A DNA stretch of 58,818 nucleotides, counting the filler, from Dugesia japonica (Eukaryota), in NCBI GenBank assembly GCA_001938525.1. It is 6 parts of 6 records of this genome, joined end to end, with 100 filler letters (N's around TTAATTAATTAA, not from the genome) between each part and the next. Parts side by side here need not be neighbours in the genome. Positions count along the whole stretch, not along the records: positions 8,479 to 18,806 come from MQRL01610118.1; 5 more parts are not named here. One strand, written 5' to 3'. Of this stretch, positions 6,841-47,100 are shown piece after piece. Made by a program: the position numbers and the translations under genes. The notes under the pieces were generated by a model. The model ran no database searches and had not been told where the DNA came from. It saw only the letters and a list, made by a program, of their open reading frames with translations. Within the stretch, counting starts at the first letter, position 1; each line of letters opens with the position of its first letter.

Positions 6841-7365
6841 TTAAATATCTAAATATAAATTGATATTTTTTGCACTTGAATTGTACTTGTTTTGCATCTT
6901 TGTTGCGAATTTTCTAAATTTTTCAATCAAATTGAATAAATCTGAAAAAATGGTATTCATACATCCTTGAAAATACAAATGTTTAAGACCTAGTATCACT
7001 GATTTGCCTGTTGAAAACACATTTACAAATAATGGGTCATATTTTACAAGTCTTAGAGCAGAAAATAACTCTGGTTTGAACCAACAGTTGACTATTCTTG
7101 CTAATTTATACAGAATAATTGAAACTCCCATATTTACGACAATAGTTAATGATTGTAATTGTAAATTGTTTATATCATTGAAGTTTAAATCATGCGGGTC
7201 CAGTGGTTTCTTACAACCTATTGTTCTACATTTTCTTGATCTGAAGAAAATAATTGTATATTTGTCACTTTTGACTTTGAATTGACATAGTTTGGCTATA
7301 TAAAAGCTCATTTTCTTTGTTACTTCTTGCGACACTTCAATTCTGTAATTAATATTGGTAATCAT
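6841..7365 (-). CDS. Divergent TATA-binding-protein (TBP)-like protein, 174 aa, intronless
   Basis: Both TBP repeats align by eye: ITNINYR~LQNIVST; TIIFFRSRKCRTIGCK~TALIFSSGKMVCTGAK; FKPELFSALRLVKYDPLFVNVFSTGKSVILGLK~[41 protein letters not shown]~ILKGFRK. Confidence 0.85.
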   Translation of the reverse strand: MITNINYRIEVSQEVTKKMSFYIAKLCQFKVKSDKYTIIFFRSRKCRTIGCKKPLDPHDLNFNDINNLQLQSLTIVVNMGVSIILYKLARIVNCWFKPELFSALRLVKYDPLFVNVFSTGKSVILGLKHLYFQGCMNTIFSDLFNLIEKFRKFATKMQNKYNSSAKNINLYLDI

Positions 7366-7394
7366 AATTAATGAATTAAAGAGAAAAAAATAAG

Positions 7395-7900
7395 ATGGAG
7401 AAATTAAGAAATTATGCAGTCTATCAAATTTTTGGACCTAGTGGTAGCGGGATAACCTTGTTCGCATGTCAATTATTGAAATCAAATTTATTGAAATCTA
7501 AATTTAAAAAAATATTCTGGCATAGAGGTGCAGATGAGTAGCACGGATTGACTAAAGCTGAATTTTGTAATATTAAAATGAAAATCAGAAAAGACTTTGA
7601 TAAAGATTGGAACAAAAGATTAAGACAGTTGATGTTATTGTTCTTGATGATTTGTATCAGGAGGCAAATAAAAAAAAAGAATTTAATAATTTATTCACAA
7701 GGCTATTGAGATATCGCAATGTTACTGTGATATTTATTTCTCAAAATCTATTTCATCAAAGAGATAGTCATAGAACCCGTAATTTGGTTCTATTCAAAAA
7801 TCCTAGAGAAGAGACTATTGTTGATTTTCTAGCAAAACAAACATATATAAATAACAGACAAAATCTGATTGAATTATTTCAAGATGTATATACTATTTAA
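7395..7900 (+). pseudogene. A32/FtsK-like DNA packaging ATPase of Polinton/adintovirus type
   Basis: ATG at 7395; Walker A GPSGSGIT (K to I), Walker B VIVLDD, RYRNVTVIFISQNLF and LFKNPRE motifs; one in-frame stop and one frameshift near 7625. Confidence 0.88.
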
Positions 7901-8478: not shown

Positions 8479-9862
8479 TTCGTTTCCTTCTTCAGGTGGT
8501 GGATCTTCTGTTATTCTGGTGATTTCTACACTTGGGTATCTTCTCTCTTCATTTCTTATACTAATTTTGGGAGATTCTGGTTGTTTTTGTGGATCCATAG
8601 CTGGTTCTTCAATTGTATCACAAGTGTCTATTTCTTCATGTTCGGTCATTTGAAGTGACACGTTCGGTGCTTGACCTAATTCGTCTTCATTGCGAATATT
8701 TGAAGATAATGGGATTAGTTTCAAAAGTGGTTCTTTCCTACTTGTTTCGGATGATTTGAGGGTAAAAGTTTGGTTGTCGGTGGTTATATGATCCACCCAT
8801 TAATCTCGAATTTTCATATAAATCCTTCGAACCAAACAAGCATTTTTTCAGAACTGAGATCGTTAGTTGCCATTGCATTTTCTTTACGGAGAATTCGATT
8901 TTTTAGGTATGCAATCCTATGCGCACTTTTACATTTCTGAAATCCGAGTTTTCAAAATATTTTGCTTCTCCTAGATGTGTAATTTCTAGGACTCTTGAGT
9001 AAGAGCATCCGATGGCCTCAAGAAATTCAGAAATCACAATACCTACAATGAACCTTCCATCGAGGAATTTCCTTATTTTAACCTTGGCATCCTCTCCATC
9101 TCAATTTCCTCGAACCTGCTCCTCTTGTAGCCCATAAGTGTGGGATTGGTAATGTTTAACTGGTTGCTTTAGAGTAATTATCGAATTGAGGAGTAACTCC
9201 CTTCCAAAATTTAACACTGTCACAGCTACTAAAGCTGGTGACAAGATTTCTCTTAATTCACAATAATGTGCAGCCACAAAGCAAGTAAGCTTCTCGTCTT
9301 GAAGCTGCGTTAGAGGTAATTGGACGAATGATTTTAACGTTTTCATATCGTTCATGTTCCCGTTATAAGTTAACAACGGCTCGTTGGCTGAAAAAGTAAC
9401 ACGTGAACTAACTATGGTTAGTATCTCTTCTACTATCATAGTACAGTCTTTTTGCTGTGGAATGACATGCGTTTCTCTCTTTCGTCACCATGTCTAAATA
9501 TATAGGACCTGAGGTACCTGCAATATAAACCACATATGGCTTATTTATGCAATGAATTCCCATATAAGACGTTTTGTTTTCCTTTTTCACATCTGAAAAC
9601 ATATCAAACAGATTGGCAATTTTTCTGGCAGATATGTCTGACATGTACATGGTTCACTTAGATGCTTGATGACATTTGTAATTATTGGGGATGTAGTCTG
9701 TTTTATAGATCACATAATTATGATATTCGCGTTTTTCTGTGTAGAAATGACTTTATATTTGGTGATAGATATACTTCTCCTTGTAAATAGTCTGGACTAT
9801 TATGTTAGTCCTCTGGTTTTTGTATTGATTTATGAGATCGTAGGAATGTACGATATGAATAT
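8479..9862 (-). pseudogene. Long degraded ORF of unknown function (about 460 codons) downstream of the Gypsy integrase
   Basis: Track ORFs 9408-9650, 9101-9439 and 8479-8796 join with one frameshift and a few stops; frame opens right after TTTTAG at 9863; acidic, Pro-rich C-terminal part. Confidence 0.5.
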
Positions 9863-10045
9863 CTAAAAGTAAAAAATTAATAAACTTATCACATCAAATG
9901 ATATGCCAAAACTGGCTATATTTAATAAGCACAGTTCCACTGACGTGAATATTTATGCAAAAAATGCTTTTATTTTAGTTTGTATAAATAAAGATATGAT
10001 AAATCTAAATATAATACATATGACTTTACTTTCAGGGTAGCCTAG

Positions 10046-11114
10046 TCAGCTGATGAACTCATAGAGATTATCTGGTATGTATATTTTCCTAATTTTCGCT
10101 ACTTTATAGTAAGCTCATATCCCTATTGTTACAATTGATATTATTCTTAACACAATTACAACTAATGGTATTATTGTCAATACTTTTACAAGCGTGACTA
10201 AGTAGATTTTCTCTAAATGTTTAATCGTGAAATTACATTTTTCAGGAGTCAGCTGCATAGCTAAGAGTTTTCTTGTCTCGTTGATGGCCATTCTGCAGAA
10301 TGATTGCAGTTTATTCCAAATTTGGAATTCAATTGTTTGCTGGCTGTTGTTTTCATTATACTTCTAGAAGCAGTATTTGCTGACATTGTCTTACTAGCGC
10401 TTGAGATTTTGCTGGTGATTATCTCTTTACTAGTGCTTTTAAACAATTTGATCTTTTCAGAATGGAGTATGTGCTATTCGTTGCTGTCTTTTTTCTTTTG
10501 ATAATAAACTGTATTAACTACCTTCATTGGGTTTGTACATCATGTTTGAGATTTAACTCCTGGAGCTAATCNTATCGGTGTACTTTTAAATTTGATAACA
10601 ATACAATGCTCGAATTTTTTCGTTCTCGAGAAGGTTGTGCGTAGCTTAGTTTGGTTCCATTTGACGCTTTAAACTTGTAACATGGTTAGATAACATTCTG
10701 CTAAAGAGAGTGTCTTCTATATATCGGATCTGGATTCATAATGAGCAGTTGCAACATTTAGTTGTTGAGTGAATTTTATAAGATATATTTTATTGGCTTC
10801 TAGATCAGTGAGGTTAAAAACTAGGCGTTGCTTGTCAATTAGTAATTCGCGACATACAACCTTTGTACAAAATGAAAGTCCAAAACNNNNNNNNNNNNNN
10901 NNNNNNNNNNNNNNNNNNNNNNNNNNNNNNNNNNNNAAAATGAAAGTCCAAAACGCCACTCTGCTGTAAGTAGTGATTTGATTAAAATAGTATGGTTCCA
11001 CCTTTGAAATGTAAGTTGACTCACTGGCATTGCATCAGGCTTGAAATATTCTTGTCTGTCTATTTTCATGATACAGCTACATAGTATTATTAGCATAACT
11101 GATTTCGTCAACAT
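10046..11114 (-). pseudogene. Type I membrane-protein-like ORF fused in frame to the integrase C-terminus
   Basis: Signal-like MLTKSVMLIILCSC, ectodomain, S/T-rich stalk (STSKEIITSKISSASKTMSANTAS), hydrophobic VLTIIPLVVIVLRIISIVTIGI and basic YYKVAKIRK; several stops and a frameshift. Confidence 0.55.
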
Positions 11115-12566
11115 TTTACTCCGAATAGGATATCTGTTTCCTTGGGATTCTGGTTTGATTTCATCTTTCTTCTTCTCTGAATTTTTCAGCTCATTTTTTT
11201 CTTTATCATCCGGATAATATATTTTACATCTATTAGCATAAACTAATATAGGTTCTGCCATTTTATTTGAATANAGTTTTAACACTAAATTTGTTTCTGT
11301 TGCTTTAATGACCTCATAAGGTCCTTTGAAATTTCTTTTGAGTTTTGTTGATAGATAATGTCTCTCTAACATAACAAAATCTTAAAATTTAAATTATACA
11401 GGCTTTGTCTTTTTATCATAGTTCTCTTTCATATTCTCTTGAGCATATTTAATGCTGAGATTTGTAAAAAGAAGTTATACAGTCTCATTGAGCCATCTTT
11501 GTTTGCCGCTATAATGAGTAGTGATTGATATGGGGGTTAACTGTTAATGATGATTTTATATTTTTGAATTAATTTTATCTGTTTATTTACACTGGCTTCC
11601 AATTTCTCTAGAATTGGGTATGGTTTCTGCTTGATGGGTTGATCTGTAGTTAACTCAACCTCCTGTTCTAATACGTTATTAATTTCCAGATCATAATCGT
11701 GCTTGGTGAATATGTGATCATATTTTCTTAGTAACATATTCACAAGAATATTTTCTTGATATTTTGCTGTCACAGCATGGTGCATCGTAACATTCAATAT
11801 CTGGATCTCATTCTTCATTTATTGACAAAAACGATGTTTCAATTGTTATTTCATCATCTTGAATGTATATAGTTCCGATAATTGTATACGGAAATAATAT
11901 TAATGCTTTCATATTTAAATTTCTAATTTTTACTAAAAACATGCCATCATGATATTGCTGACACTGCAAATCCTTGGAATGCAATATTTTTCCGCCAATA
12001 ACGGATTAGATTCAAACATTATTTCTCCTTGATATTCTTTTGTGGTGTTTACTATACACACCGCTTCTGTTAATGGTAGAATAGTAATTGTTTGATCTAT
12101 GTAGGCTATATGTTTGTTATAAACCTTTCTACTGGTACTTGATTTCATCACCAATTTTCCAGTTACGCACTCAAAAACAACATTTTTTAGTTTACTATCA
12201 CATCCATCCTGAATGCGCATTTGAATGGGCATCTCCGCATGACTTTGACATTGTGGATTAGTTCTTGATCACATAATTTAATATTACATTCCAAATAACC
12301 AATTATATCTAATTATGTCTCATTTACTCCGGAGGTTTGCTGCTAATGTTTACTATCGATTCTGCTTCTGATTTATTTAAAANACTGGCTTCTATGATAG
12401 TGACATCTGATCCTGAGTCTATCATAAAATAGACTACATGTTTATTGATCCTTATTTTGATAGTTGGTTTATGAGCATATCTGCTTACGTTTACCATAAA
12501 AACAGTTGATTGCAAAGTTATAATTCCCAATATGTTTTCTCTTTGTGTATCTTGGTTTGAATCCAT
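11115..12566 (-). mobile_element. Ty3/Gypsy pol remnant: protease, RT N-terminus, internal deletion, integrase GPY/F domain
   Basis: FMIDSGSDVTII (aspartic protease); RKYDHIF...TTDQPIKQKPY (pre-RT region); KLKRNFKGPYEVI...VYANRCKIY (GPY/F). Confidence 0.88.
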
Positions 12567-13145
12567 TTGATTATTATTTACCTATTGATGTGGAGTTGTT
12601 AAATCATGCATACTGAGTTCTGGATTTGATATAAGCAAACTCCTTCTCCAAGCCCTCTCTTTTCCACAATTTTGGAATTCTTCCACAAAATCTGCTTGAG
12701 TCAAATTTGTAAGGGATTGTTAGCCTGTGTGTTTCTCAAATAGCACACGTACCAGACTTTGTGATCCTGGTTTTCTCTCTACATATTCTTAATTTCTTTC
12801 CATATCTCAATTATCGATATGCTCTCTTAATTCATCCAATTTTCAAGTTGGGTACATTGGTGGTGGTAGAATAAAACTTTCAATTAATGTACTTGCTTGA
12901 AATAGTGGATTTTGTATAGTTTTAATTGGTGAAATATCTGGTCCAGGACCTGCGTATCTCATCCATCCATCCCGTGTCGTAGGAATACCATATTCTTTCC
13001 TTTTCTTATCAATAAGAATAGCCAAATTTGCTTTCTTAGTTTTACTCCATGCCCTCGGGAATGCATCATCAACAAAACCTCCTCAAGCTGATAATTCATT
13101 ATTTTCATCACCATTTTTGTTCTCATCACTATCTGAGTGTTCAAG

Positions 13146-13451
13146 TCACACCACTGTATGCTTCATAGTTCCGTGTTTCATTTTTAATTTTTTAATCTCA
13201 TGATGATTCTTAAATAATATAAATTTAGCACAAAATGGCAAGAAACCAACTATTAAATGGCATGTGCATCCACCAACTTTGAGTTTACTATAGGTTGAGA
13301 ATAATTGTGTAAATATCAATTTGGTCAAAACGTAAATAGCATATATACCAGCTAAACATGAAATAAATACTCCAAATGCACTAAAGTTTCCCTTTCTCTT
13401 TCTCTTTGCTACATTCCTTGCAGTTTCTTTACAGTGCTCTGGCCCAAACAA
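13146..13451 (-). pseudogene. C-terminal membrane region of a chuvirus-like (class III fusogen) envelope glycoprotein
   Basis: FSAFGVFISCLAGIYAIYVLTKLIFTQLFSTYSKLKVGGCTCHLIVGFL resembles the two-hydrophobic-segment end of chuviral glycoproteins (G...G.Y...L.KLI......Y.....G.S.HL.G). Recognised from memory of the family. Confidence 0.6.
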
Positions 13452-13468
13452 TAAATGATAGTTACTAT

Positions 13469-16400
13469 TATGTTAAATTATAAAATTATAAAAATTATTT
13501 TATAAAATTAGGTTTAAAAATAAATAAAGATAGAAGTAAATTAAAAGTATTTTGGAATTTAAAAAATCAATATTTTTGAAAAATATTTTATTAAGATTTC
13601 ATAGATTATTTGTTTGAATATTGTAAATTGTTCTTTATCATTTTTCATTTTAATAAAAGACTTGTAATAACCAATAAAAAATTTGCGAGACTTTGAATCT
13701 AACTAATATGGCGATCAACGCATCATTGGATTTGTAAAAAGAAGCCATGAGCTCTGGAATTTTCAAATTGGGCGATGATGTCAAAAAATTTATTTTGAAG
13801 TCAACGAAATATTTTGAAATAACCGGAACAAAGAAAGTCCAAAGGAGTTTGTTTGTAGTTGCTTTCATAGATAAAGAACTGCTTGAAATCTATGAAAATG
13901 AAAACGAATCATTGGGATTTGAAGAAAGATTCAGAAAAGCTTCCTTTAGATCATCAACAATGATTAAAGATATAGAGGAAGCTCAAAATTATCGAAGGAA
14001 TGGAGAACATATAAATATCTATAAGAAAAAGATTGAAGTATTAGTAGAATAGTTAATGGCTCCAAAATGTTACAAAGAGGACTTAACAAAAGAGCTAATA
14101 ATGAATAGTTGCAACGAAAGAAAAATTAAACATAAAATCAAATCAGGAAAAATAGAAAAAGTAGACGATGTATTTAAAGCAAAAAAAGAGTGGAAAGACA
14201 TACAAGACGAAGTAAAAACTGAAGAAATAAATGTAGTTCGTATCTACAGAGATGCCGTTTGCAGAAGCCCAGAAGAAACAAATTTCAAGACAAATCGTAA
14301 ATGAAGGTATGCAACAGAAAATCAANAACGAAAGACAAAAAATCACGTGCTAGATCTGTAGCAAAATAGGTCATGTAAGCAGAAATTGTCAAGAAAGAAA
14401 AAAATAGTGATATGATGTGGATCTGAACAACATTTGAGAAGAGACTGTACCAAAGTTAGTTGCTCAAGATGTAACAAGAAAGGCTATTACTCAAAGGACT
14501 ATTACACAAATATGAACACGCAGTTTAGTTATAAAAACAAAAGTGAACAGGCCAGAAAAGAATTTGGAAATGGGAAACAAGGATATTATTCAAATAATAC
14601 AAATAATTACACAAAGACAAATGGAAGTCACGTTTATTCAATTGAGGAAAATGTGAAAGATTATGCATGTAGAGAAGACAAAGGTCATTATTGTAATGAC
14701 GGGTCAAATAGTTATCAAGATAAATACTCAAATGGCCAAACTCCGACCAAAGTCGAGATTGTCGAAGCGTTGAATTAAGTATCCTAAAAAATCGCAGTAT
14801 TGTTAATTATAGTAAAAGTAGTATAATTAATTAAAAATATTAAAGAAACGAAGATAAACGAGTATATGATTACAATGATGTAAAATAAAAGGTTTACAAG
14901 TTTGCAAAGAAAGAATTGATTAGAAGCAAACCGCAGATTATCAATGGTATAAATGAAGAAGATGATTGTGAAATTCTCAAGATAGAAGAAATAAAGCGAC
15001 AAGAGATAAGTTATGACAAGATGTAAGGTAGACCAAGTATAACAGTTGAAATACAAAATGTTAAAGTTGATTGCTTGTTAGACACTAGAGCATGAGTTAA
15101 TGTGATGAGTTTGAGAATTTTGGAAATATTGAGAGAAGTCAATATATTAAAAAGTGAAGACAATCTAAGATGTGCCAATAATAGACTGCTTGAAATCCTC
15201 GGTAAGATAAAGGTAGAAGTAAAATTAGAGAATAAACGCAAAACTGTTAAATTCATTGTTAGGAAACAGATACACCCAAATCTAATTGGATGAATAGAAT
15301 TACAGAAACAGTTTGGATTCCAACTGCCGAGAGAGACTAAATGTGAAGTCAATGAAATTTATCTTTGTAATATAGAAGCAAAGTATTGACGTAATACAAC
15401 GGATGAAGAGAGAGTACAGAGCGCATAAACAATTCTGATTAACAAGCTATATGAGAATTTAGAGAAATTTATAATGATTCATAATTGAATTTTCATGGCA
15501 GACAACTGGGATATTGGCAGAACAACAATGGCAGACCATCAAATTATAACAAATGGAGAACCAATAAATACAAAACTATAGAGACAATAAAGCATTTAGA
15601 GAATAAGATTAATGAAGCTATCAAGAATTTGTTTGACAGTGGCAATTTTAGAAAGTGTAATTTGCAGTGGAATACTCTGTTAATATGTGTTTGGTAAAAA
15701 GAAAGAAAAACGTTAGATTATGTCTTGATTTTAGAAAACTGAGCGTAATCACAGAAAGACATGCATTTCTGATGCCCAATATAGAGGAAATACTAGACAA
15801 TTTGAGTGGTGCAAGATATATATGTGCCATAATAGATACATTAAGCAGATACATATGCTTAACAGCTCTAGTTAAACAATTTGAGGAATNNNNNNNNNNN
15901 NNNNNNNNNNNNNNNNNNNNNNNNNNNNNNNNNNNNNNNNNNNNNNNNNNNNNNNNNNNNNNNNNNNNNNNNNAAAGATCTTCAAATCGAAAGCCTTCAA
16001 AGAGATGACAGAACCAATGAATTTAAAAATTTGCTTTTCAAGTCCATATCATCACAATACAAACGGAATAGTAGAACGTCAATTCAGAACGATCAGAGAT
16101 TACATCAATGCAAAATTAAAAAATAAAAAGAATAAAAATTGGGCAGACTTAATACCAGAAATGGAATATACTCTATATGCAACAAGCCAGAAAACTTTGG
16201 GCATAAGTCCAGCAGAAAAGATATTCGGTAAGAAGATACATAGAGAGCGACGAAAAGAAGGAAGAATCTGAAGAGTTTCTACCAATAAAGAGACATTTTC
16301 AAGTTGAAGACGAGGTGCTAATCAAGGCAGAAAACAGATCAAAAAAGAAAGATAGATACACAGGTCCGTACGGGGTCATAAAACCGATTCATGAAAGACG

Positions 16401-16880
16401 ATACCTGCTGTAGTGTTCAGAAGGCAAGATAATTGAAAGAAATGTGGAAAAATTAACAAAAAATTTAAAGAGGATATGTGAGGTCAATTCATGAATTTCA
16501 AGTATCTGAGATTTTTTAATTTTTATATATAGTATTAAAATTGGTTTTATGAAACTTTTAAAATATAAAACAGGTTTTTTAAAATACAAATTAATTGAAT
16601 AAATTCTATATTTTATATTATTCAAATTTGTGAAATTATAAAAATTATTTTCTAAACCTATGTTTAAAAATAATTGGAAAATAAAAGTATTTCAAAATTA
16701 AAATTATTTTATATTATGCAAAATTATAAAACTATAAAAATTATTTTGTAAATTAATGTTTAAAAATAATTAAATATACATGTAAATAAAGGTATTTTAA
16801 AATTAAAGTCGATATTTTATATTATGTTTAATTATAAAATTATAAATATTATTTTGTAAAATTAGGTTTCAAAATAATCT
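13469..16880 (+). mobile_element. Internally deleted Ty3/Gypsy LTR retrotransposon (gag with zinc knuckles, PR, RT start, IN end)
   Basis: Knuckles such as CSRCNKKGYYSKDY; CLLDTRA protease; RLCLDFRKL; SPYHHNTNGIVERQFRT; GPY. TGGCG PBS-like site at 13709, purine run then TGTG at 16478; related AT-rich sequence at both ends. Confidence 0.88.
16630..16878 (+). repeat. About 105-bp tandem units in the 3' LTR, with a related copy at 13469-13578
   Basis: Variants of TATG..AATTATAAAA.TATAAAAATTATTTT.TAAA.TA.GTTTAAAAATAA recur near 16630, 16715, 16823 and 13469. Confidence 0.7.
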
Positions 16881-16889
16881 CAAACGGTT

Positions 16890-18806
16890 GAAACTTTGTC
16901 GACTCTTGAACATTAGCGTTTATACTGAACTTATTTCTTGAAAATAATGCATCCANGTTTTCCTCATTACAATTTCCTTTAAGTGAAGTGGTATACATAT
17001 CTCTTATCGTAAGAATCATTCTTTTTTTACCATCCCATTCGATTGGTGTTGGTACGGAGAGCTGAACTCTTGTTTAATATTAAACTTTGCTAACTTCTCT
17101 GACATGTATTTACCCTCAAACAATTTTCCTCTGTCGATTAATTTGCTTTCTGGTTTGCCGAAACGACATATTTATTTGTTCAAAATTATTCCGAAAATTG
17201 TATCTTCATTTATCTTTGATACCGATGATATACTTACCAGTTTGCTAAACCGATCAAAAATCACCACCATTTGCTTTTTTCCTGATGCCACTGTTTCTAT
17301 ATGAGCAATATCTACCACAATTTGTTCTAAAATATCTTGACACTTTCTAGATAACAACAGCTCTTTCGTTCTTCCTTGACCAATTTTCCTTTTTGCACAA
17401 ATCACACATTTATGCAAGTTATTTTTACTTGTTTCTATCATTGCAGGCCAGTAATAATTATTCTCTAAATTAGAAAATATCTTCTTTATCCATAAACGAC
17501 ATAATTCTTCATGAATATGTCTGATCATTTCGTTGGTTACACTCATTGGTATTATAATCAAATTTTTTTTTCTCTTTCTACGATTAATAAGCCATCATCA
17601 ATTTTCGATTCGCGATCAAGTTTATCTAAATAGTTTCCATGAATGATACTTTCTGCCAGTTGTACTCCGTTTTGCATTATTTCAATTCTTTTTTGTATTA
17701 TTGGATCATCTTTCTGTGCATTCCGAATTTTTTCTATGATGTTTTTATTCTGTTGTAAGCTCTTAATATATTTTACTATTGATTTTTCTTTCTTGGGATA
17801 AAAATGTACTGTTTGGCATTGTGAGCATAAACTCTCATTTATCCGCGATAATCCATCAGCATTGTTGTATTCTTCCCCTTTTCAATATTTTAACTCAAAA
17901 TCATATTCCCCGAGATTTGCCATTCACGTTTGAAATTGTGGGCTTATCGGTTTTTTTGTGTTATTCATAAATATCAGTGCTTTGTAATCTGTTCTTGCTA
18001 AAAATTTCTTTCCACAGAGATATTGCTTGAAATGTACTACATATTCACGTAATGTCAGCAATTCTTTTCTTGTAACGCAGTACCCATTTTCATGAGTAGT
18101 GAGGTGCCTGGATCCATATTCCATCTTTACTTCTTCATTATCTTCTGTTCTTTGCCTCAACACTGCACCGATAGCTCCGAAACTGGCATCAGTATATAAG
18201 ATAAACATTCTAATTTGTCTTGGAAAATCTAGAATTGGTGATTTACATAACTTGTCTTATAAGTTTTCAAAACGTTTTCTACATTCTTCTGTCCACATTA
18301 AGGCTTCATCACATCCTGAAATAGCTTCATATAAAAGTGTAGCGACTCTGGCGTAATCCTGGATAAAACATCTGTAATAATTCGTTAAGCCAAGGAAAGA
18401 CCTGAGTTTAGATGAACATTTAGTTCTGCAGCATTTCTCATTTCCTAAATTTTAGTATCATTTGTTTTTACTTCTTCTGCACTTATTGTGTGTCTCAAAA
18501 AGACCAATTCTTTTTTACAAAATTTACATTTTTCTGGATTAATTTTCAATCCCAATTCTCTTATTCTGTTGAAAACTTCTTTCCAAATTTCATTATTATC
18601 TTCGACCTTCCTTTCATACACTAATATATCATCTAGATAAACGATAACACCTTTAAAATTTACCCCTGCCAACATATCATGCATCAACTTTTAAAACATT
18701 GCCTGTGTCGTTGCTAACTCGAATGGGATCCAATTGAACCTAAATTGACCCTCTTTTGTACTAAATGCCGTAACATCTCTCGAGCTTTCTGATAGTTCTA
18801 CTTGAT
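16890..18806 (-). mobile_element. Decayed Ty3/Gypsy pol (RT, RNase H, integrase)
   Basis: VIVYLDDILV, FILYTDASFGAIGAVL, YCVTRKELL, integrase zinc finger IHEELCR...CVIC. Confidence 0.93.
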
Positions 18807-20274: not shown

Positions 20275-23200
20275 GTAGTCAATATCCAATGACATAAATG
20301 ATCAAATTAAAATCGAAGATATTTGAAAAGTACATATTTCAATAAAAGAGAGTATTTAAACAAATATGTTAGAATATTTATTATATTTTATTAACCATTT
20401 TCTGAGTGTAATACTAAATCACTCCTCCGTCAGTTGGAGGAGCGTTTAATATGAAGGGTGAAATAATTTTGTCAATCGAATTTCGCTATGTTCGTCCTCA
20501 TTGCATCACTTCAATAACCTTACCATCTTCATTTCTCCAAATTAACAGATATGGACCTTCATAAACTGACTGTAGTGGTCTTCTTAATTAGCGTTTGAAC
20601 CATACAAATTTGCATTTATCAATTCTTGTGGCATGAATGTTCTCGTCACTCCATGAGATCTAGGCTAACTGTTTTGAAATTATGTTGGAACCTATGCTTG
20701 TCCATCAGAGCACGATGTTAAAACAATACCACCTGGTAAACGGATAATAGTACCAAAAACTGTTTGAGATGGTTATAACTTTGAATATTCCCCGACTGCG
20801 TTACGGATTCCTAACATTCTTAACGGAAGACATTCTAACTGCGTGCAGCATTAGTTCCTTGTGTCCGTAGAACAGTGTCTCTCAAACTGTGTGAAATAAA
20901 CAATAAATCAATATCGAGAGGAAAGATGGTTGGTGGGCGAATGAAATCGGACGAACAACTAAAATCAGTTGGCATAAAAAACAGATGCAGAAGGAGAAGA
21001 GAACAGACTATATCGAGAATTTTAGAAGACTTTTAAGACAATTTTTTGGTAATTATGAAGAACAGCGAGAAAATAATTGTATTTTTGTAGACATAAAAAA
21101 ATGTATTAATTCAAGTGACCAGCCTAANNNNNNNNNNNNNNNNNNNNNNNNNNNNNNNNNNNNNNNNNNNNNNNNNNNNNNNNNNNNNNNNNNNNNNAAA
21201 GTTTAATGAGAAATAATATGGAGATGACAAAGAAAATGTTTAAAAAGTTTAATAATTAATGCAATTGAAAGAGAAAATATTTAGGTAAGCTTTTAAAGAA
21301 AAACGAATTACGCTGAACGGAAAGAGAAAATAACTATGGCAGTTTACTAGAGAAAAGGTGTTGTGCAGTTTAAAGGAGAAAGTGTTATAAAGTTTTAAAC
21401 AGGAATGCCTAGGCAGATTAAAAGTGAAGATTGGTACAAGGTGATCGAGAGTGACCAAGAACATCGTTATGAAAGCTTACAAGAGAATGATTGTTGAAAA
21501 GTGAAAGAATATTTAAGTAAAAGTGCTGTAAAATGTCAACAGAGTAAATTCGCTATTAATGAAAGAGATTTAACAGTGTCAAAGAGAGTATTGGCATACA
21601 AAGTGAGGGAAGTTTGACGATCAGTTAAAAGACCCACTTGATAATTTCACGGTGTAATATTATTTTTTTATTCGAGTTTTAGTTGTGAGATTCATGGGTT
21701 ATCAGACAAATATAATTATTTCATTTAGTTGCTTTAAAATTGTTGAATTTTATTTGATTTAATAATATAAATTTAATTACAATGTTAATAATTTATTTTA
21801 ACAAACTAAAGTACTACCGTCGATAGTAGTACAAATAAAATTATGTTTGCCTGGATAAAAACGATGAGGAATTTTATCGCATGATTAGGGACATCGTGGC
21901 AGACCTACGAAGGGGTGTGAACGAGAGAAGATGGCAAGGTATTCTCACGTTTTAACTCCAGGAGTGCGGAACCTGACATATGAGGCTGCAGGGCAAAAAA
22001 CTCGTTCTACGATTTTCATTATTGTTTTATGATTACAGTTGCATTTTATATTTATCTCTTATTAATTCAAAATTTTAATAGACGAACACATTAAAGCGAA
22101 AGTATGGTGGAAGTGAAATGAGGAATTAGTACTTAGCAAAATATTGGTTGTTACTAACACCTATACAAATAAAAGACGTGATACCACAAAGTCGCGTTGA
22201 ACTCGGAAATAAGGGGCATGAAATACTGAAGGTGTCATACGTGAGGATTCTAGGTATGCCCCTAGACCAACGATGGAAGTGAGATATCAATTGTGAGAAT
22301 GAGAGTCGACTATGAGAAGCAAGTTAAAGGACTTTAAACAACAAAAGCCTAGAATCCCAACATTTCTATAATTTCATTGCATTTTGGGTGGTATGTTGTA
22401 TGCTTAAGTTCAATTCCAAAAAATTCAGAGAAATCATTAAATACTTCCGCTATAAATTATCTATCATTGTCACCATATCCATTCTTCAGTTAAGTCTTTT
22501 ATAACGGTTTCACATGTAATTTCATTCAGAGCCACTCCTTCTGTCCATGAAGTATCACGACCAATCATTGTTATTATAAACTTTTTGTCTTTATGATTGG
22601 TAAAGGACCAACCAAATCTATAAGCAACAATTTAAATTTTCCTAGATTCGGAATCGATCCTAAAAGCACTTTCATGTGTCCTGTTATTTTATTGGCTTGA
22701 CATATTTGACAAAATCTGCACCATCTATGAATTTCGGATTTTATACCTGGCCAAACAGAGAATTTTCAGTAACCTAATTGTTGCAATTTGATACTTAATG
22801 ACACAAATTATGAAGTCTTTCAAATTAATTGAAGCGAAAACATTCCAGTACAAAAATTCTCGTGTTGGCTTTCGAAGTGTTAATAAAAACACCATCATTT
22901 GATATTTTCAGTTTCAGAGTGCCTTTGTATATCTTTGAGAGATTGATTAGATCTGAAAGTGAAATATGTTCCATTTCATTTAATATTTCATAGTGACTTT
23001 TCTGGATAGAAAGTCAGCTACTATATTGTCAGAGACTTTGATATACTGAATTGGTATCGATGACCTGTGTCATTGACGTCTAAGCTAATACGAATTGTTT
23101 TTAAAAAGTCATATGGTTCATTGGCATGTGGATTTAAGTCCTAGAATTGCGAATGTTTGAAAGCTGCATCAACTTGAGTGAACAAATTGACCACATTTAG

Positions 23201-24419: not shown

Positions 24420-25808
24420 TTAGGTTGGTAAGAAAATAATGTCTGTTTTGGATTTTCTATTTTAAACTAAAATAAATCAAAAACAGCAACTAAACCTCGT
24501 TAATTAAAATAGCAACCATTACAATACACATTCTTGCTAACGGGAAACACGTTTTCTCATTCCAGTCGTATAGAAATCCTCACAATAAAGTCNNNNNNNN
24601 NNNNNGCTTGGTTTTTAAAGATTTTCCATCCAAGAAAACAACAAAAATCCTTTAAAAAGTAAGTCAGTAAGTGGAAGTCCGGTGGGTTCCGCGGATAAAG
24701 CCAAATCTTGAAGCATAAATCATCTAACATTGGTATTATTATTTGTGCAGCATGCGGCCTAGTATTGTCACGGAGAACAATTGGACGTTTACTGTTGACC
24801 AAAGCTAGATGAAGAAGTTGCAAATTTTTATGATTCTCGTCGATTTCTGTACAGTATTTGTCCACTGTAATAGTTTCATAGAGAGACGGAAGGTTATAAT
24901 GGATAATGCCTCCAGAATGCAACCAAACGCTTATCCTTAGCTTCTTTGGATGAAGTTAGGGTTTTAAAAATTGTTGTGGAGAATGATCATAGTCAAAACA
25001 CTGCGGAACCCATGCTGTTATACAATTACAATTTTTCATCGTATATCACTATCAGTTCGATGAAAGGGTTGCAGATATTCTGAAAAAGCGACAAACATAC
25101 TTCAAAACGCCGACTTTTTTATTTTTCACTTATACAGCTTTTCCACATTGAACAATTGTTTGAGATACTTCAGAATTGCTACATGATTGAGATTTAACTC
25201 ATGGGGAAACTGTCAAATAGTTTTGTGCGGATCTGTCCTAACCAATTCATTCAATTTTTTATTATCTACGGAAGCTGGAAGTTCAAAACCTTCTACATCT
25301 TTCAGGCTCCTATGCTCATCACTAATATTTTAGAACCAACACCTCATTGAGCGCTCAGTTATTTTCGGAAGATCAATGCGCTATTGATATTTCTACTAGA
25401 CTCTACAGCCTTGTACTCAGTTTGTAATTGTAAAGATAAATGGTAAGCATTCTGTTTTTACGCTATAGATACGTTCCGTGGCAACACGCGTAAAAAAAGA
25501 TAGTGTATCTATATAAACAGATCGGATTGGTTCTATATTTAAAATATCAGCAAAAATAAGGTGAATAAAGTATGATGTAAATTCATGGTTCTTATGTGCT
25601 TTATACAAACATTTTATTTAAACAAAAAGTAAAAGAAACAATTCATTTAATAATTATTTTATAATAAATGCATAATTTTAGATAAAAAAAACATTCATAA
25701 TTTCACAAAATTTACCAGCAAAATCAATAGAAAATCCATTAAAAAAAAACGTTTAAACCACGTAAAAACAGAGTGCAATATTTTATTTGAATCGCGGAAA
25801 ACAGAATT

Positions 25809-27082: not shown

Positions 27083-28186
27083 TTGGTTCGTACGGAAAGT
27101 TCGTGCCGATTTTCAGTATGTGGAATTAAAACAGATTTTAATATCTAGGAATGATTGAAAACAAGTCATATCGATTTACATATTCTAAAAATTAAATGAC
27201 ATATGTGATTGACTAAAGATGAAATGATTTGTTTAAATAATCACCGAAAGTATTACGCCAATTTAAATATCGAAGAAAAGAAAATACAATATAGGCATTT
27301 CATGTTGTTCTTTAACAGGAGAGGTAAAATACTACGCAAGCAGCAAACAAAATATACGCTGTTCGTGGTAAAGGTGATTTATATATGAGAGAACTGTTCG
27401 GGAGATTTTTGTTAGATTTGAAGGTGGTCATTTGAAACTTGGCGATAAGGAGCGTCTGGTTCAAGGCAGCACTACTGATGAAGATGATATCAAAAACACT
27501 TGTAGAGAATAATACACACCATGCGACAAGTGAATTAGCAGAAGTGGTAAATATACCAAATACGACAATCTATGAGCATTTATTAAAGCTCGGATACATT
27601 AACCGTTTAGATATATGAATTCCACTCGATTTTAGTGAAAAGAACTAAACATCTGCCACTCATTCTATAAACGCAACGAGGTTACACCATTTCGAAGTAA
27701 GTAGTGACAGGAGATGAGAAATCAATAACTTCAGCGGAAAAGATTCTGGGGAACGCGAATAAAATCACCATTAACCACCCAAAAAGTTGGTCTTCTTTCC
27801 AAAGTTATGCCCTGTGTATGGTTGGACTGGGAAGGAATTTCGTTTTATGAGCTTCAAATTAATACAAACTAATCAGGCGATAAATTCCGAAAAGTATTGT
27901 TTGCATTTAAANNNNNNNNNGTGTTCTGATCTTGTTTATAAATATGAATGTAATGGTGTAATGCCACATACATTGGAGAGACTTCCCATCATCTCTGTAC
28001 AAGAATTCAAGAGCATTTTCGAGTTGGTAGTGGAACAAGTAATATTGCTCAGTTGGAAAGGGCTATCCAATTTTCCTTATTCTATAGATATTGCACCCGC
28101 AGATTTTCACTTATTTAGATCTTTGCAAAATTCCCTTAATGGCAAAAACTTTAGCTCTTTGGTCGTCGATATAACAAAATTATCTA
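27083..28186 (+). mobile_element. Decayed mariner interrupted by a Penelope GIY-YIG fragment (about 27922-28050)
   Basis: VTGDEK and PYSIDIAPADFHLFRSLQNSL; the insert reads VYKYECNG/NATYIGETSHHLCTRIQEH across a frameshift. Confidence 0.85.
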
Positions 28187-29025
28187 GATAATTTTTTCAA
28201 CTGGAAACCTTATAAATTCTGAAAGTATGGAATCTTTAAGTTGGGTGAAAAATTGAGAAAGTTGTGGAACAAAATAGCATGTATATAATTTAAATGTTAC
28301 TTCTGAATTTTCATTATAAATCTGGACAACNNNNNNNNNNNNNNNNNNNNNNNNNNNNNNNNNNNNNNNNNNNNNNNNNNNNNNNNNNNNNNNNNTAATA
28401 AAAACTTTTAAACGCCATTTCAATAAAGATTTAGAAAGACCAGTTTGAACATTAATTTTTGGATCAATCGATCTGATCATCAATGCTTCACACATGACTC
28501 TCTCAATAATCTTTAAANNNNNNNNNNNNNNNNNNNNNNNNNNNNNNNNNNNNNNNNNNNNNNNNNNCTTCGGATACAATAATAATTCTTTTTTTGAAAA
28601 TTCTTTATTTAAACAATATTTATTTCTTTTTTTCTTTTTTTAAAAATTATTATACATAAAAAATTCTGATTATGTAAACAATTATGCAATCTCTCTAATA
28701 AATCAAATTAATTAAAATCATTCAATAAAGATTTAGAAAGACCAGTTTGAATATTAATTTTTGGATCAATCGATCTAATCATCAATGCTTCACAGATGAC
28801 TCTCTCTCAATAATCTTTAAAGTTTTTGCACCAAATTTTAAAATTATTTATACTGATAACTGATTTGCAATTAATGTTATTATGTTCAGCAATATTACTT
28901 CCACTACCAATTCGACAATGCTCTTGAATTCTTGTACAGAGATGACATTGAAGAGACTTCCCGTCATCTATGTACAAGAATTCAAGAGCATCGTCGAGTT
29001 GGTAGTGGAAGTAATATTGCTGAAC
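28187..29025 (-). mobile_element. Penelope-like element remnants: tandemly repeated 3' end and a terminal fold-back
   Basis: CEALMIRSIDPKINVQ (GIY-YIG C-terminus) present twice (28420-28517 and 28722-28820); homologous to 46770-47045. Confidence 0.8.
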
Positions 29026-41124: not shown

Positions 41125-44100
41125 TGCCAGGATGGGGTGGGTCTCAATTGTTCGCAAAGTATATTAAACTCCCGGAAGGTCCATTATGTAATGCAATGAA
41201 CAAATCCTTTGAAATATGGATAAATCCAATTTATTTCTTACCGGAAACATTAAATTGCCTTGCTAGCTTACTTAAGCTTGAATATAATAAGTCCAATGGA
41301 ACTACACATTCTCCAAATTACCTTAATGTAACAGCACCAGGATTTGGTTCGATAGATACAATAAAATTTTTATCGAAATTTAATTTTTCATTAAGTAAGC
41401 TCTCATCTTTTTGCTTAAATAAGTAAAAATCAATAATTTTTTTTAAAAAATATTATTTCATTTTTACAATTGTTTTGTTTTTAAATCTTTCTAATTCAGC
41501 CAGTTATTTTTATTACATTTCGAATGNTTTAATAAATGTGCACAATTATACTGCCAACGTCAACATTCGAGGTGCTCCATATGATTTCCGTATGGCTCCA
41601 AGTAAGTAATTAATTAAAATTTATGGTAAAATTTCAAATAAATCTTTTAGATGAAATGAAGAAATATTTTTGTGATTTAAAAGTACTTATTGAAAAAATG
41701 TACGCCGATTCAAATGGAACTTCTTTGATTTTAATTGGTCATAGTTTGGGAAATTTATTGATGCAAGAATTTTTATACGGAATTTCACAAAATTGGAAAG
41801 ACAAATATATCCGTTCATTCATTAGTATTAGTGCACCCTATTCTGGATCAGTGATTCCGCTCCAAGGAATTTTAACAGGTTATTTACCGATTAGAATATT
41901 ACTGTTATTATTGTTTTTGGATGTATTCTTGTTTTCATATAAACTTATGTTACCTTATGTCGCTCTGATTATTTTTGAATATAAATTATTCAGTTGTCTT
42001 ATAACCTTTACTCTCGACAGCGTTGATGACTCTTATTAGAATGATGCAAACCTGGACCATTTTAGTTTGCATTCAATAATTAAGTTGTGTGATAAAATCT
42101 CTAGATGAATAGTAAGCTACTCAATTGACTAAAAAAAAACGTTTAGATATTAGATAGTCGTCAATTTATTTCAGAAGAAACAAGAAACCAAAAAATATTT
42201 ATTAAATGTTCTTTATAATTTATGAACAAATGTATTCATGGACTGACAAAGATATTTGTTTAATAAATTTCTTATAAAACACTTCAAAGTGCTTTTTTTG
42301 ATTTAGACAGGGCGTGTGGTAACAATCTATAAATGTTTTGTTGATGCAGATGATTTAAATAGTTAAAGAATTCTTTTATCGTGTGTCACTAGAAGAGACT
42401 TGGCTTGCCAACTACGGTAAGTACGCTTTACATTCACCATAATTTCTCTAGGTTGATCAAAAATGAATAATAAAGAACAATTATTTATGTTGAAATAAAA
42501 ACGAATTCTGTGAGTACCACATTACCAATATGCATATTACATTGACATTGGGTGTACATCAATCAGTCAGAGTTAACCTAAAATGAGAGTAGTCCTTTGA
42601 AAAATTTTCAAAATCATCGGTAATTAAAAGCAAAATTTTGAGTTGAAACTATCTTAGTTTTTTCACATTCCTTTGAGAGTATTTTTATTTCGTCATACAT
42701 TGATGACAAAATTATCTGATAACTGAACATTATTTGATATGGGAACTATTTGTAGCTATTTTAAGAAATTATAACTTAACGCTTCTTGGATTAAACCTAA
42801 GAGGGACTAAATAATTAATAATTGTTGCTGTTTTGGTTTCTCATTTAACTGTAACTTTAACTTTAACAAGCCAATGGGCATCACCATCAAGATCAACCAT
42901 TTTAATATATAATTTTTCGTCGAATGAATTTCATTCTGATATTGTCTTATTTAAATAAAATACCAGCCACTGAGATAGTATAAATTATGGTTCCGTGACA
43001 CCTGTGACTAATTGAAATGTTTATTAAGTTTCTAGTATGGAACATTTGACCGAAATAAATTATAAACAATCCCTTGAATCAGATTCCACCGATTATTCCC
43101 ATATACCTATTTTTCATATAATCAACTATTTGTGTATTTGTGTATTTCCAAGACCTTCTTTTGTATCTCTTTCTCCAGTATCGTTATCTGTTCTTTATCT
43201 CTTTTTATTTCGAGTTTTCTTGTTAAATATTACTTTTTCGATCTACTCTGATCGAATTTAACAATATTGTTTTATCTTTTCTTTCTTGGGTTTTTTGTGA
43301 GTCGTCTAGCATTATGTACAAGTTTAGAATTTAATTCTCAAACCGTGTCTGTATTCTTGTAATCTAACACTCTTCCTGTATTCTACTATTGTGACGATTT
43401 TGGTTTTTTTATTGTTTTCATAAACATATTGCTCTAATAGTATCGAAAGTAACCTCTTTCTTTCTTGTAACAGAAAAACATAGAATCTGTGCCGTCGTGA
43501 GTATTACCTTCAATTCTTCAAATACGTTATTCGTTTTCTCTGTCTATTAAAATCACTTGTTAATCGAATCATTATATAACTGTTCTAACATTCGACTTCT
43601 TTAGCATACTCGCTAGCGAATCTTCTGTAATAATTGCAGATGACTAAAAAGCTTCAAAGGGTTTTTATACAAATTGGATTTCTGAATTTGATATGACCTC
43701 AAATGATCGGTCTGTACTTCTTCTTTGTTCATTATTTATCCAAAAACGTTAATTTCTCATTGTAATAATTGACAGTTTTCTGGGTTAATGTTTAGTCATT
43801 TTTTCCAAATCTATTTTAACACTTCCTTTATTATGTTCTTTACTGCGTAAATAAATCGAAACTTTGTCCAAATACGTTACACCATCTTTTATTTTATTAC
43901 CTTTGTAGTTATTTCCTATTTTTGCTTATAAATTTAATAGATCGGTTCACTTCTTGTCACTATCCTATGCTTTACCAGATACGTTCGTTCTCGTACCACT
44001 TATTCATCATAAACACGTTTTTTCTGTTAATTATTATTTTCTTAATTTAATATCTTCTTTGGTCTTTCCAATTTCTAAAGCTCGCATCAACCGGTCACTA

Positions 44101-47100
44101 TCATTTATATGAATTTTCTGAAAATGCCATTTAGCATCGTAACAGCATCCGGTACATTTCAGGGGATGATGACAAAAGTGGTAGTTGGAATAAATCTAGC
44201 CATGGGATATCAAAATGACATTCAAATATTTGCGAACAATAAAGATCAACACTATAAAGTAATTGATAAAGTTTTGACAGAAATAATGAAGGCTAGTTAA
44301 AGAATTAATCCAGAAAAGTGTCAGCTTCTTCAAGGTAAAATAATATTTCTTGGTCACATAATTACCAAAGCTCACGGTAGAACTGATTCGTCTAAAATAG
44401 AAGCAATAGAAAGATTAAAAATATCTAATTGCGTGAAGAAGATACAAAGTTTCTTAGTAATTTGTAATTACTACAAGATGTTTATAGAAAACTACGTAAG
44501 AAAATCAAGGATCTTAGAACAATTGTGTAGCAAACCAATCAACAAGAAATTCGAATGACAGATTAAATAAACGATACTTTTGAAGATCTTAAGAAATCTC
44601 TAATGACTGCACCAATATTGTGTTTTCCAGACATAAACAGAGAATTTATATTAGATACAGATGCCAGTTTCCGTACAATTGAAGCAATATTATTACAGAG
44701 AGATAAATAAGAAAGAGAAAGAGCTGTTGTCTATGGATAAAACTTAATGAAGAATCATGGAAAGGGGTACTTCATCACACGAAAAGAGATATTGGCTGTT
44801 TATTATTTCTGTATGAATTTCAAGCATTACTTATTCTGTAGAGGATTTACTCTTAGAACAAATCATAGAGCTCTAACATTCATGATGACGACAAAGAAAC
44901 CAATTACATTACAATTCCAGACACATGTTAATTATCCGAGTAGTCCAGATATGATTTTGGAATATAGAAAAGGAATTAAACATAGTAATTTAGACTTGCT
45001 ATCTAGACCAAGATGTGAAGTATATGTACAATGTCAAATGCTACATGAACATGCCAAGAAAGGTAAGATTAAAACAAGAGTACTGAACACAATTGAAAAG
45101 GAAAAAGAAGAACAATTGAACATTTCTGCAGAAACAGATTTAATCAAGAAAATAAAAATTCCGGATGACAAATTACATGAAACAATGGAAGAAATACATA
45201 AATTATTATGTCATGCAAGAGTTGAAAAGTTGTATGAATATATGAGAAACAAATATATTTGGAAGAATTTGTGGAGCCAAATACATAAGATAGTTCCTAG
45301 TTGTTAAATTTGTCAGAAGACCAAAGTAATTACAATATTAACTAAAGAGAAGGCAAAGAGATTAGAAGCTACCAATTTGTTTGAAGTCATATTCACAGAT
45401 ATTTGTGAGCGAAGTTCGGAAGACATTTGGATGGAAATAATGCATTCTTGGAATATTAGACCAGTTCAGTAAATATCTGACTCTTATAGGATTGCGTAGA
45501 CAAGGCAAAAAAGCAATACGAAAAACTATTTTTGAGAATTGGATATTGGGATTTGAATGCCCAAGAGAGATCAGCCTCGATTGTGGATAAGCCTTCGAAT
45601 AAAGATTTATGAAAGAGTATTCACAAAAGCTAACCTTTAACCTTTCGTTTTCAATTCCCTTTCATCACAATGCAAAAGGACAAAATAAAAGAAAGTTTAG
45701 GACAATTCAAGATTTAATTAATGCTACACTTCCGGAGAGAGAGACAACAGATTTGTAAGATCTATTACCGGAAATAGAATTTAGAATAAACGCAACAAAG
45801 CAAAGGACAACTAGATAAAGCCAGGTTGAGATCATATTTGAAAGGAAAATTAGCAGAGAAAAGTGGTAAGAATCAGAAGTTTCAGAAAAAAACTAAAGAA
45901 AACATCTCAGAAGCAACTACTAATAAAGAATTTGGCGGAACATAGAATGTTAAATGTCACAGGTTGTAGAAAACTGTTGGCTTTTACTACTTCTAATATT
46001 TCTTTTCTGTTTAACGATGAATGTTATAAGGTAATTGACGGATTTGCTATGGGTTCACCTCATCCGCCTGCTCTGGTTTCATTATTATGTTCAAATATTG
46101 AAAAAAGGATTGAGTTGCTTCCAGGAATTAAGCCATTGGTACAAAAACGTTATGTGGATGATATTTTCTTGGTGTTTAGTAATGAATTCAATGTAGAATC
46201 TTTTTAAAATTATATGAATTCCTTACAGTCGAATATAAAGTTCACAACTGAAACGGAATGTCATGGTAAACTTCTTTTTCTTTATTTATTAATAGAACAA
46301 AAAGCTGACCATTATGAGACAGTAATTTATCGAAAGCCAACTGATACTGATTTATATACAACACCTTGTAGTTTCTGTGAATCTCGATATAAATTTAATA
46401 TGATTTAAGATTTAATATAAAGATCGTAGACTCTATCTTCTTCTTAATTGAAGTCATGTTTAAATATTCAAACTTTGAGTTCTTTGTGAAATGAAAATAG
46501 ATATTCTAAATCAATTGTAGAAAGATTGATGTATGAAACGATCGATAAAGTTTTTCTAAACATAAATACTAATTTAAAAGATGAAAATTTTATTAAAGAT
46601 CCAGATAAATCTAATAAAATCGATAAAATTTGTTATGTTTTAAATATTCCGTATTCCGAGGGCTTTAGAGATTTTCAAAATAGTTTGCTAAAATATTCAG
46701 TAAATCTTCCAAATTTTTAAATTGTGTCCCGGTCCTATAAAATTATAAGACTCATTATGGATTGGTTTCTAATCTTATTTATAAATTTGAGTGTAATGGG
46801 TGTAATGCCACATACATTTGAGAGACTTCCCTTAATCTCTGTAAAGTATTCAAGAACATAGTCAATTAAGTAGTCGCTGAACACAATATTCAGTGTAAAT
46901 CAGTTATAAATATTAATAATTTCAAAGTTTTGTGCAGATATTTTAAAGATTATTGGGAAAGACAGTCATGTGCAAAGCATTGATGATTAGATCACATGAT
47001 CTAAAAATTAAGGTTCAGACTGGTGTTTCTAAATCTTTATTGAATTTTATTGAGACTTTTATATAATCGATTGCATAATGCAGAATTTTAGTATTCATAG

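Follow-up and report, generated by a model that had tools for sequence, protein, structure and literature searches.

The minus strand of a 58,818-nt stretch of Dugesia japonica DNA (assembly GCA_001938525.1; hereafter the window, taken at its full length) very probably carries, from about position 13472 to 8960, a decayed copy, truncated at its 5' end and with an internal deletion, of a Ty3/gypsy errantivirus whose Gag, Env and Pol belong to one ORF. The window copy is dead and encodes nothing functional, and its pieces are colinear with an intact single ORF that runs Gag (capsid, CCHC), signal, Env, transmembrane segment (TM), tail, retropepsin(s), RT, RNase H, integrase and, usually, a second signal, repeats predicted to be of the fibronectin type III (FN3) fold and a further TM. 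The features assigned to the copy, and the repeat unit that bounds it, are as follows (P numbers denote proteins and L001 a metagenome locus).

13450..13576 (no strand): AT-rich unit belonging to the repeats of the adjacent Gypsy, marking the upstream break of the element; 75-90% identical to the tandem repeats at 16598-16877, on the far side of that Gypsy
13212..13472 (minus): Env C-terminal end, chuvirus/gB-type, about the final 15% with the membrane-proximal segment, the TM and a second hydrophobic helix, by PF24664 and the Env profile; the remainder is absent upstream
13314..13370 (minus): predicted Env transmembrane helix (Kyte-Doolittle 19-mer mean 2.02)
12471..13211 (minus): Env cytoplasmic tail / protease linker, ~248 codons with stops, not Gag, by the P0011 alignment and a Gag profile score of -2.1 bits
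12846..12866 (minus): PPPMYPT, overlapping PPxY and hydrophobic-Tyr-Pro motifs by motif reading, candidate ESCRT late domain
12196..12470 (minus): retropepsin (DSG, 12411-12419) broken where the frame shifts between 12354 and 12312, by RVP and by tblastn of P0024 and P0026, which align in frames -2 and -1
11435..12196 (minus): post-protease spacer and N-terminal RT with stops and frameshifts, by tblastn with P0024 (1511-1751, E 4e-11)
11120..11459 (minus): integrase C-terminal (GPY/F) region, by tblastn with P0024 and P0012 (E 1e-15 to 1e-18)
11067..11111 (minus): signal-like hydrophobic stretch, in frame past the integrase, aligned by tblastn to the post-integrase signal of P0024
9600..11066 (minus): slot matching the FN3 repeats and TM of the relatives by position only, spanning the N gap at 10887-10936
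8963..9466 (minus): remnant of an ISG20/REXO4-like DEDD exonuclease ORF with one stop, its first acidic motif gone, by tblastn with the downstream ORF of L001

An Env End and a Protease in One Minus-strand Frame

The preliminary description of this DNA, made from the sequence alone, had placed three ORFs (13146-13451, 12843-13025 and 12324-12566) in a single minus-strand frame with seven internal stops, a PPPMY motif and a DSG protease. Our reading of the ORFs gave the same frame, stops and motifs, and shuffling bore the frame out: over 382 codons it contains 7 stops, where shuffled sequence contains 31.3 ± 5.3 and none of 5000 shuffles has 7 or fewer, and the remaining five frames over the same stretch contain 14-37 stops each. 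The linker alone has 6 stops in 188 codons versus 14.8 ± 3.6 after shuffling, a number as low in 0.6% of the shuffles; because another minus frame of the linker likewise has 6 stops, its assignment to the Env-protease frame relies mainly on the relative P0011, which aligns across the tail in this frame (13328-12825, E 4e-6).

The chuvirus-type glycoprotein proposed for the upstream end was recovered with Pfam, since 13146-13472 matched PF24664 (Monjiviricetes_fusion, positions 521-611 of 653) at E 7.7e-8 and 31.2 bits, above the cut-off of 27; RVP was matched by 12324-12581, also above its cut-off (E 2.9e-4). When a profile built from the Env of 18 relatives was run over the whole window, it matched 13472-13212 only, at profile positions 524-609 of 609 (E 1.5e-18), and found no Env ectodomain elsewhere. 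The window Env end is 54% identical to P0022 and 44% to P0024, and a 99-column Env tree joins it with P0022 on a long branch, little else being resolved. This closest Env match (199 aa) stops ~65 residues past the membrane region, without a protease. The second hydrophobic helix of the window Env scores 1.86, close to the 2.02 of the first, so that this copy does not decide whether Env is single-pass; in 21 sequences the first helix of the Env end is the more hydrophobic (medians of 2.19 versus 1.41).

As had also been claimed, no Gag was detected between the glycoprotein and the protease. The profile that gave -2.1 bits on the linker, built from the Gag of 11 relatives, found the Gag of the neighbouring Gypsy, our positive control, at 22-24 bits, and no Pfam Gag domain matched the Env-protease frame.

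Pol and Exonuclease Remnants

The Env end (13466-13173 by tblastn), the protease, the RT start and the integrase end are colinear with P0024, P0007 and P0012, and the order of the three Pol pieces agrees with that of Ty3/gypsy (Metaviridae) Pol. The RT piece, in which ~90 RT residues remain, is 31-37% identical to 14 full-length relatives, and an internal deletion of ~710-725 residues before the integrase end has removed most of RT, RNase H and the integrase core. The integrase end is 53% identical to P0031, whereas the matching piece of the neighbouring Gypsy reaches only E 0.19 against the same set.

Farther downstream, the exonuclease remnant is 25% identical over 169 aa to the downstream ORF of L001 (tblastn, E 2.6e-14) and has no Pfam or PDB match of its own. 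Because Env reaches beyond 13472 and the exonuclease remnant lies at the other end, the element once extended from a point beyond 13472 as far as 8963 or further. Identical 18-base sequences flank the N gap at 10887-10936 (10869-10954), suggesting that the contig ends overlap and that no sequence is missing there.

Upstream Break and Surroundings of the Element

Homology to Env ends at 13472, where the AT-rich unit at 13450-13576 starts, and Gag together with ~85% of Env, upstream of 13472, is missing from the window copy. It had been suggested that the ectodomain was cut off by insertion of the neighbouring Gypsy; the truncation at this neighbour is seen, but no remaining Env was found on its far side within the window. 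The neighbour is a decayed canonical Gypsy on the plus strand (13738-16420) with a Gag containing zinc knuckles, a protease, an RT start, an N gap and an integrase; its terminal repeats may be represented by the ~95-nt AT-rich tandem units at 13450 and 16600-16898. Neither an LTR, a Gag or an ectodomain of the Env-carrying element nor a repeated copy of any part of 8480-13470 was found within the window, and no LTR pair was found within L001. With no Gag, ectodomain or LTR in the window, we infer the upstream part from relatives that are 29-54% identical.

The window as a whole is AT-rich (GC 0.21-0.32), with many N gaps, microsatellites and transposon debris. Further remnants of Gypsy RT/RNase H/integrase lie at 17022-18804 (minus), 22364-22753 (minus) and 44115-45325 (plus), with 26-35% identity to the relatives that carry Env. 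A degraded TBP-like frame is located at 6841-7437 (minus; Pfam TBP, E 2.1e-6), and apparent exons of an LCAT/phospholipase gene are found at 41130-42039 (plus) beside a long (ATT)n microsatellite, the LCAT-like exon being 62% identical to P0042 over 55% of its length. The intervals 24557-24955, 27775-28639 and 55511-56314 hold Mariner-type transposase remnants (Pfam Transposase_1 at E 4.5e-7 for the first interval) and a 267-aa frame that we take, by eye, to resemble a hAT/Charlie transposase. The stretch is contained in 7 of the 24 sequencing runs listed, 6 of them with at least half its words, from 3 studies; no RNA run is among those listed.

Relatives Encode Gag, Env and Pol in One ORF

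A phmmer search over 1.84 billion representative proteins returned 20 matches, 19 with PF24664, 13 with a protease domain and 12 with both, the other 7 being fragments of 96-215 aa, and a search with the C-terminal half of the P0024 Env among proteins of 1651-5256 aa returned 15, all with Env and protease; since both searches favour polyproteins, one by the content of its query and the other by its length window, these numbers indicate that the design is common and do not give its frequency. The presence of both domains in a single ORF in these relatives supports the proposal that Env and protease belong to one ORF, and shows that their junction is not a chance rearrangement. A word search among longer proteins for the read-through frame found nothing in 1177 candidates, no relatives were found in viral contig and genome contig collections, and the Env of one relative had no significant match among PDB sequences.

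On the other hand, the Gag-less Env-Pol design put forward in the preliminary description was not sustained by the intact relatives. L001 contains one ORF of 3703 aa (the same sequence as P0029) in which two CCHC motifs lie upstream of Env and the order is Gag-like start, signal, Env, TM, tail, two proteases, RT, RNase H, integrase, signal, repeats and TM. A CCHC zinc knuckle precedes Env in 14 of the 21 relatives spanning the Env start and is lacking there in 7, although four pairs of these sequences are 80-98% identical in Env and cannot count as independent; between Env and protease, no CCHC occurs in any of 27 tails. Capsid families are matched in P0016, P0030 and P0039, a hydrophobic stretch is seen by eye ahead of the Env start in 16 of 20 relatives, which are those where a pattern located the start, and the protease-RT-RNase H-integrase order is complete in the relatives. 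Given that intact relatives have Gag upstream of Env, the window copy very probably lost its Gag together with the ectodomain.

Several relatives contain additional domains. Retropepsins are multiplied in P0026, P0020, P0012, P0032-P0037 and P0039, with up to 6 motifs (P0026) and some past the integrase, and ankyrin repeats, a ubiquitin-like domain or C2H2 fingers are inserted in P0026, P0030, P0031, P0029, P0035 and P0037. The ubiquitin-like domain, which in P0031 reaches E 4.4e-5, separates Gag from Env, and a weak Bcl-2 match precedes Env in P0030 (E 0.0015). A complete Env-Pol-FN3 polyprotein, P0007 (HBK71150.1), has been deposited under a Flavobacteriaceae MAG and probably represents eukaryotic contamination of that bin.

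Alternative Origins of the Env-Protease Junction

A truly Gag-less Env-Pol element, using the capsid of another element or none, would account for the window copy as it stands and for the 7 of 21 relatives without CCHC upstream of Env in the predicted ORF. We nevertheless consider it highly improbable, because the window copy is broken inside Env at 13472, which makes the missing Gag uninformative, and because the 14 relatives with an upstream CCHC include P0029, whose Env is 80% identical to that of the CCHC-less P0024. The linker might instead conceal a short degenerate Gag, in the ENV-GAG-POL order described in oribatid mites (PMC13524379), but in the window no Gag was detected between Env and protease, where the mite elements have it, and the profile score of the tail, the lack of any Pfam Gag match in the frame and the 27 tails free of CCHC make this explanation very unlikely, even if the window tail (248 aa) exceeds those of most relatives (71-220 aa, with two longer; the full range is 71-314 aa, and one tail has 592) and contains a CGK..W stretch that by eye resembles half a knuckle.

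A glycoprotein remnant could also have come to lie beside an unrelated Gypsy pol by chance, in a region crowded with Gypsy fragments and with a linker whose depletion in stops is not confined to one frame. This is extremely improbable, since the same relatives match in succession the Env end, the tail, the protease, the start of RT, the end of the integrase and the exonuclease, and since the integrase piece of the neighbouring Gypsy fails to match the Env-carrying relatives. The decayed copy of a Gag-Env-Pol errantivirus is the explanation that we prefer.

Motifs in the Env Tail

Short motifs were counted on 25 of 28 tails, that of the window being left out and P0003 and P0015 dropped as near-duplicates. 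The pattern [LIVMH]YP is present in 19 of the 25 (shuffle mean 2.1, maximum 8 in 2000 shuffles), YPx1-3L in 13 (1.8), [ST]AP in 8 (1.3), P[ST]AP in 2 (0.12) and PPxY in 4 (0.64), the motifs having been picked after the sequences were viewed and the counts being inflated by kinship among the relatives. YPxL binds ALIX, PSAP binds TSG101 and PPxY binds NEDD4. The PPxY motif to which attention had been drawn is indeed present in the window, where PPPMYPT holds both PPxY and a Tyr-Pro motif, but it is not the conserved motif of the family, which is rather [LIVMH]YP.

A Predicted Second Membrane Protein after the Integrase and an Exonuclease ORF

Using a 15-mer hydropathy threshold of 2.2, a signal-like segment was called past the integrase in 13 of the 14 relatives that reach it, and 11 of the 14 also have a C-terminal TM. 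From 11 of these relatives we aligned a repeat that has two Cys and an LxPxTxY-like motif, and the resulting profile matches PDB structures of FN3 domains (neogenin, E 3e-4) and finds extra copies outside the alignment. An AlphaFold2 model computed on the repeat alignment (pLDDT 90.3) has irisin as its best Foldseek match (E 4.3e-4, TM 0.65) and aligns to fibronectin with a VIA-align Z of 9.9 (rmsd 2.5, 84 residues), nearly all of the 50 matches listed being FN3. According to this model, the post-integrase repeat is predicted to fold as fibronectin type III. Pfam fn3 was found neither in the 11 repeats nor in the L001 extension, the model had no match in a viral structure library at E <= 0.001, and an Atlas label of fn3 (0.85) was taken as a lead only. 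A fold computed from a single repeat sequence was unusable (pLDDT 39.5). Exceptions at this position are an Ig domain in P0040, a short Cys-rich segment in P0039 and nothing in P0035.

In the window copy, the best 15-mer of the signal-like stretch at 11067-11111 has a hydropathy of 2.11, under the threshold applied to the relatives. An interpretation of this stretch as the start of a second canonical Env was rejected, as the Env profile finds nothing there. A by-eye match of 10400-11060 to FN3 repeats was likewise discarded (pairwise z <= 1.0 for 13 relatives, and 3.8 once in the wrong frame). The FN3 profile gave 1.9 bits on the slot, a score that 103 of 1923 shuffles and 115 of 2050 window chunks equalled or exceeded, with an hhalign probability of 0.3%, and the slot was not among the top window chunks.

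In L001, the polyprotein is followed by two separate ORFs, one of 222 aa and no known family (11375-12043) and one encoding an ISG20-like exonuclease (12085-13473). The latter resembles ISG20L2 (7yw5, E 2.5e-12) and ISG20 (E 1.2e-10), whereas Pfam RNase_T is reached only at E 0.0011.

Proposed Mechanism

By analogy with flavivirus and alphavirus polyproteins, the intact polyprotein may be threaded through the ER membrane in alternating topology, where signal peptidase would separate Gag from Env and the integrase from the FN3 protein. As we infer Env to be single-pass, protease, RT and integrase would hang on the cytoplasmic side until the protease frees them, and the Env tether could bring the enzymes into budding particles with no need for a Gag-Pol frameshift. 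ESCRT might be recruited for budding by the hydrophobic-Tyr-Pro (YPxL-like) motifs of the tail, with an occasional PPxY or PSAP, and the FN3 protein might mediate attachment. Since all three come from one ORF, Gag, Env and Pol would be made in equal amounts, barring splicing or early termination, a stoichiometry that this mechanism does not explain.

We put forward only tentatively, and at somewhat less than even chances, a lineage with two surface proteins made from one Gag-Env-Pol-FN3 polyprotein, in which a class III fusogen would be joined by an FN3-repeat type I membrane protein as candidate receptor-binding partner (the role of gD/gH/gL for herpesvirus gB), the late domain would be part of the Env tail and not of Gag, Pol would be packaged by the Env tether, and an ISG20-like exonuclease would serve as accessory gene. 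A single ORF that crosses the membrane repeatedly would provide a route to Pol packaging and budding other than the retroviral Gag-Pol frameshift and Gag late domains.

Comparison with Known Systems

The errantiviruses of Nematoda, Bryozoa and Platyhelminthes have been reported to contain only gB-type Env, in the order GAG-ENV-POL, the nematode elements having a flipped ENV/POL order, and six Schmidtea families with 1-215 copies are included among nine flatworm rows (Chary & Hayashi, eLife 2026, PMC13524379). The Env-before-protease order, which had been regarded as unusual, is thus not new (PMC13524379), and because the window copy is dead, it adds by itself one fossil. The closest known systems, GAG-ENV-POL errantiviruses with an HSV/gB-type Env such as Smed_errantivirus_1-6, share with the intact relatives a Ty3/gypsy Pol, a gB/chuvirus-type Env before Pol and an upstream Gag (PMC13524379). 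The Env domain I-II of Smed_errantivirus_1 and 2 shares, by eye, many motifs with our relatives (PMC13524379), in each of which (20 sequences) 6-9 of 9 short motifs occur. Consistent with a GAG-ENV-POL element, the window has a chuvirus/gB-type Env directly upstream of Pol, without Gag between.

The nematode NERV elements, reportedly described by Sacco et al. in 2022, are said to have a continuous gag-env-pro-pol ORF, as metaviruses with an RNA-virus glycoprotein, and to carry an accessory helicase and a small ORF.

The text of Chary & Hayashi on gB-type errantiviruses mentions no fibronectin, late domain or polyprotein, nor Env and Pol as one ORF (PMC13524379). Similarly, no published FN3 membrane protein or tail late domain was found in the eLife and bioRxiv texts of these authors, in Rodriguez et al. 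2017 or among the papers listed by literature searches, which exclude subscription journals and Repbase. The parts for which no description was found are seen in the relatives and only partly in the window copy. The entry mechanism of gB-carrying errantiviruses has been called unknown because herpesvirus gB requires partner glycoproteins (PMC13524379), and the predicted FN3-fold membrane protein, encoded by the same ORF in most full-length relatives, would be a concrete candidate for the missing partner of the gB-like Env.

The Anakin elements are also LTR elements that captured the same glycoprotein family, but they are BEL/Pao elements of mosquitoes and not Ty3/gypsy (Dezordi et al. 2020, PMC7642597; PMC10084718). 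Atlas virus of hookworm resembles the relatives in having Gag, Pol and Env as one polyprotein ORF; however, it is a belpaovirus with Env last and a class II phlebovirus-like fusogen, and its FN3 topology is that of domain III of Gc and not a separate protein (PMC9094657). Finally, the bdelloid Juno and Vesta elements have an accessory ORF for a DEDD-family exonuclease downstream of pol, as in L001, but there ORF3 encodes an RNase D-like DEDDy exonuclease that replaces env, whereas here an ISG20-like enzyme stands beside a gB-type Env (Rodriguez et al. 2017, PMC5408684).
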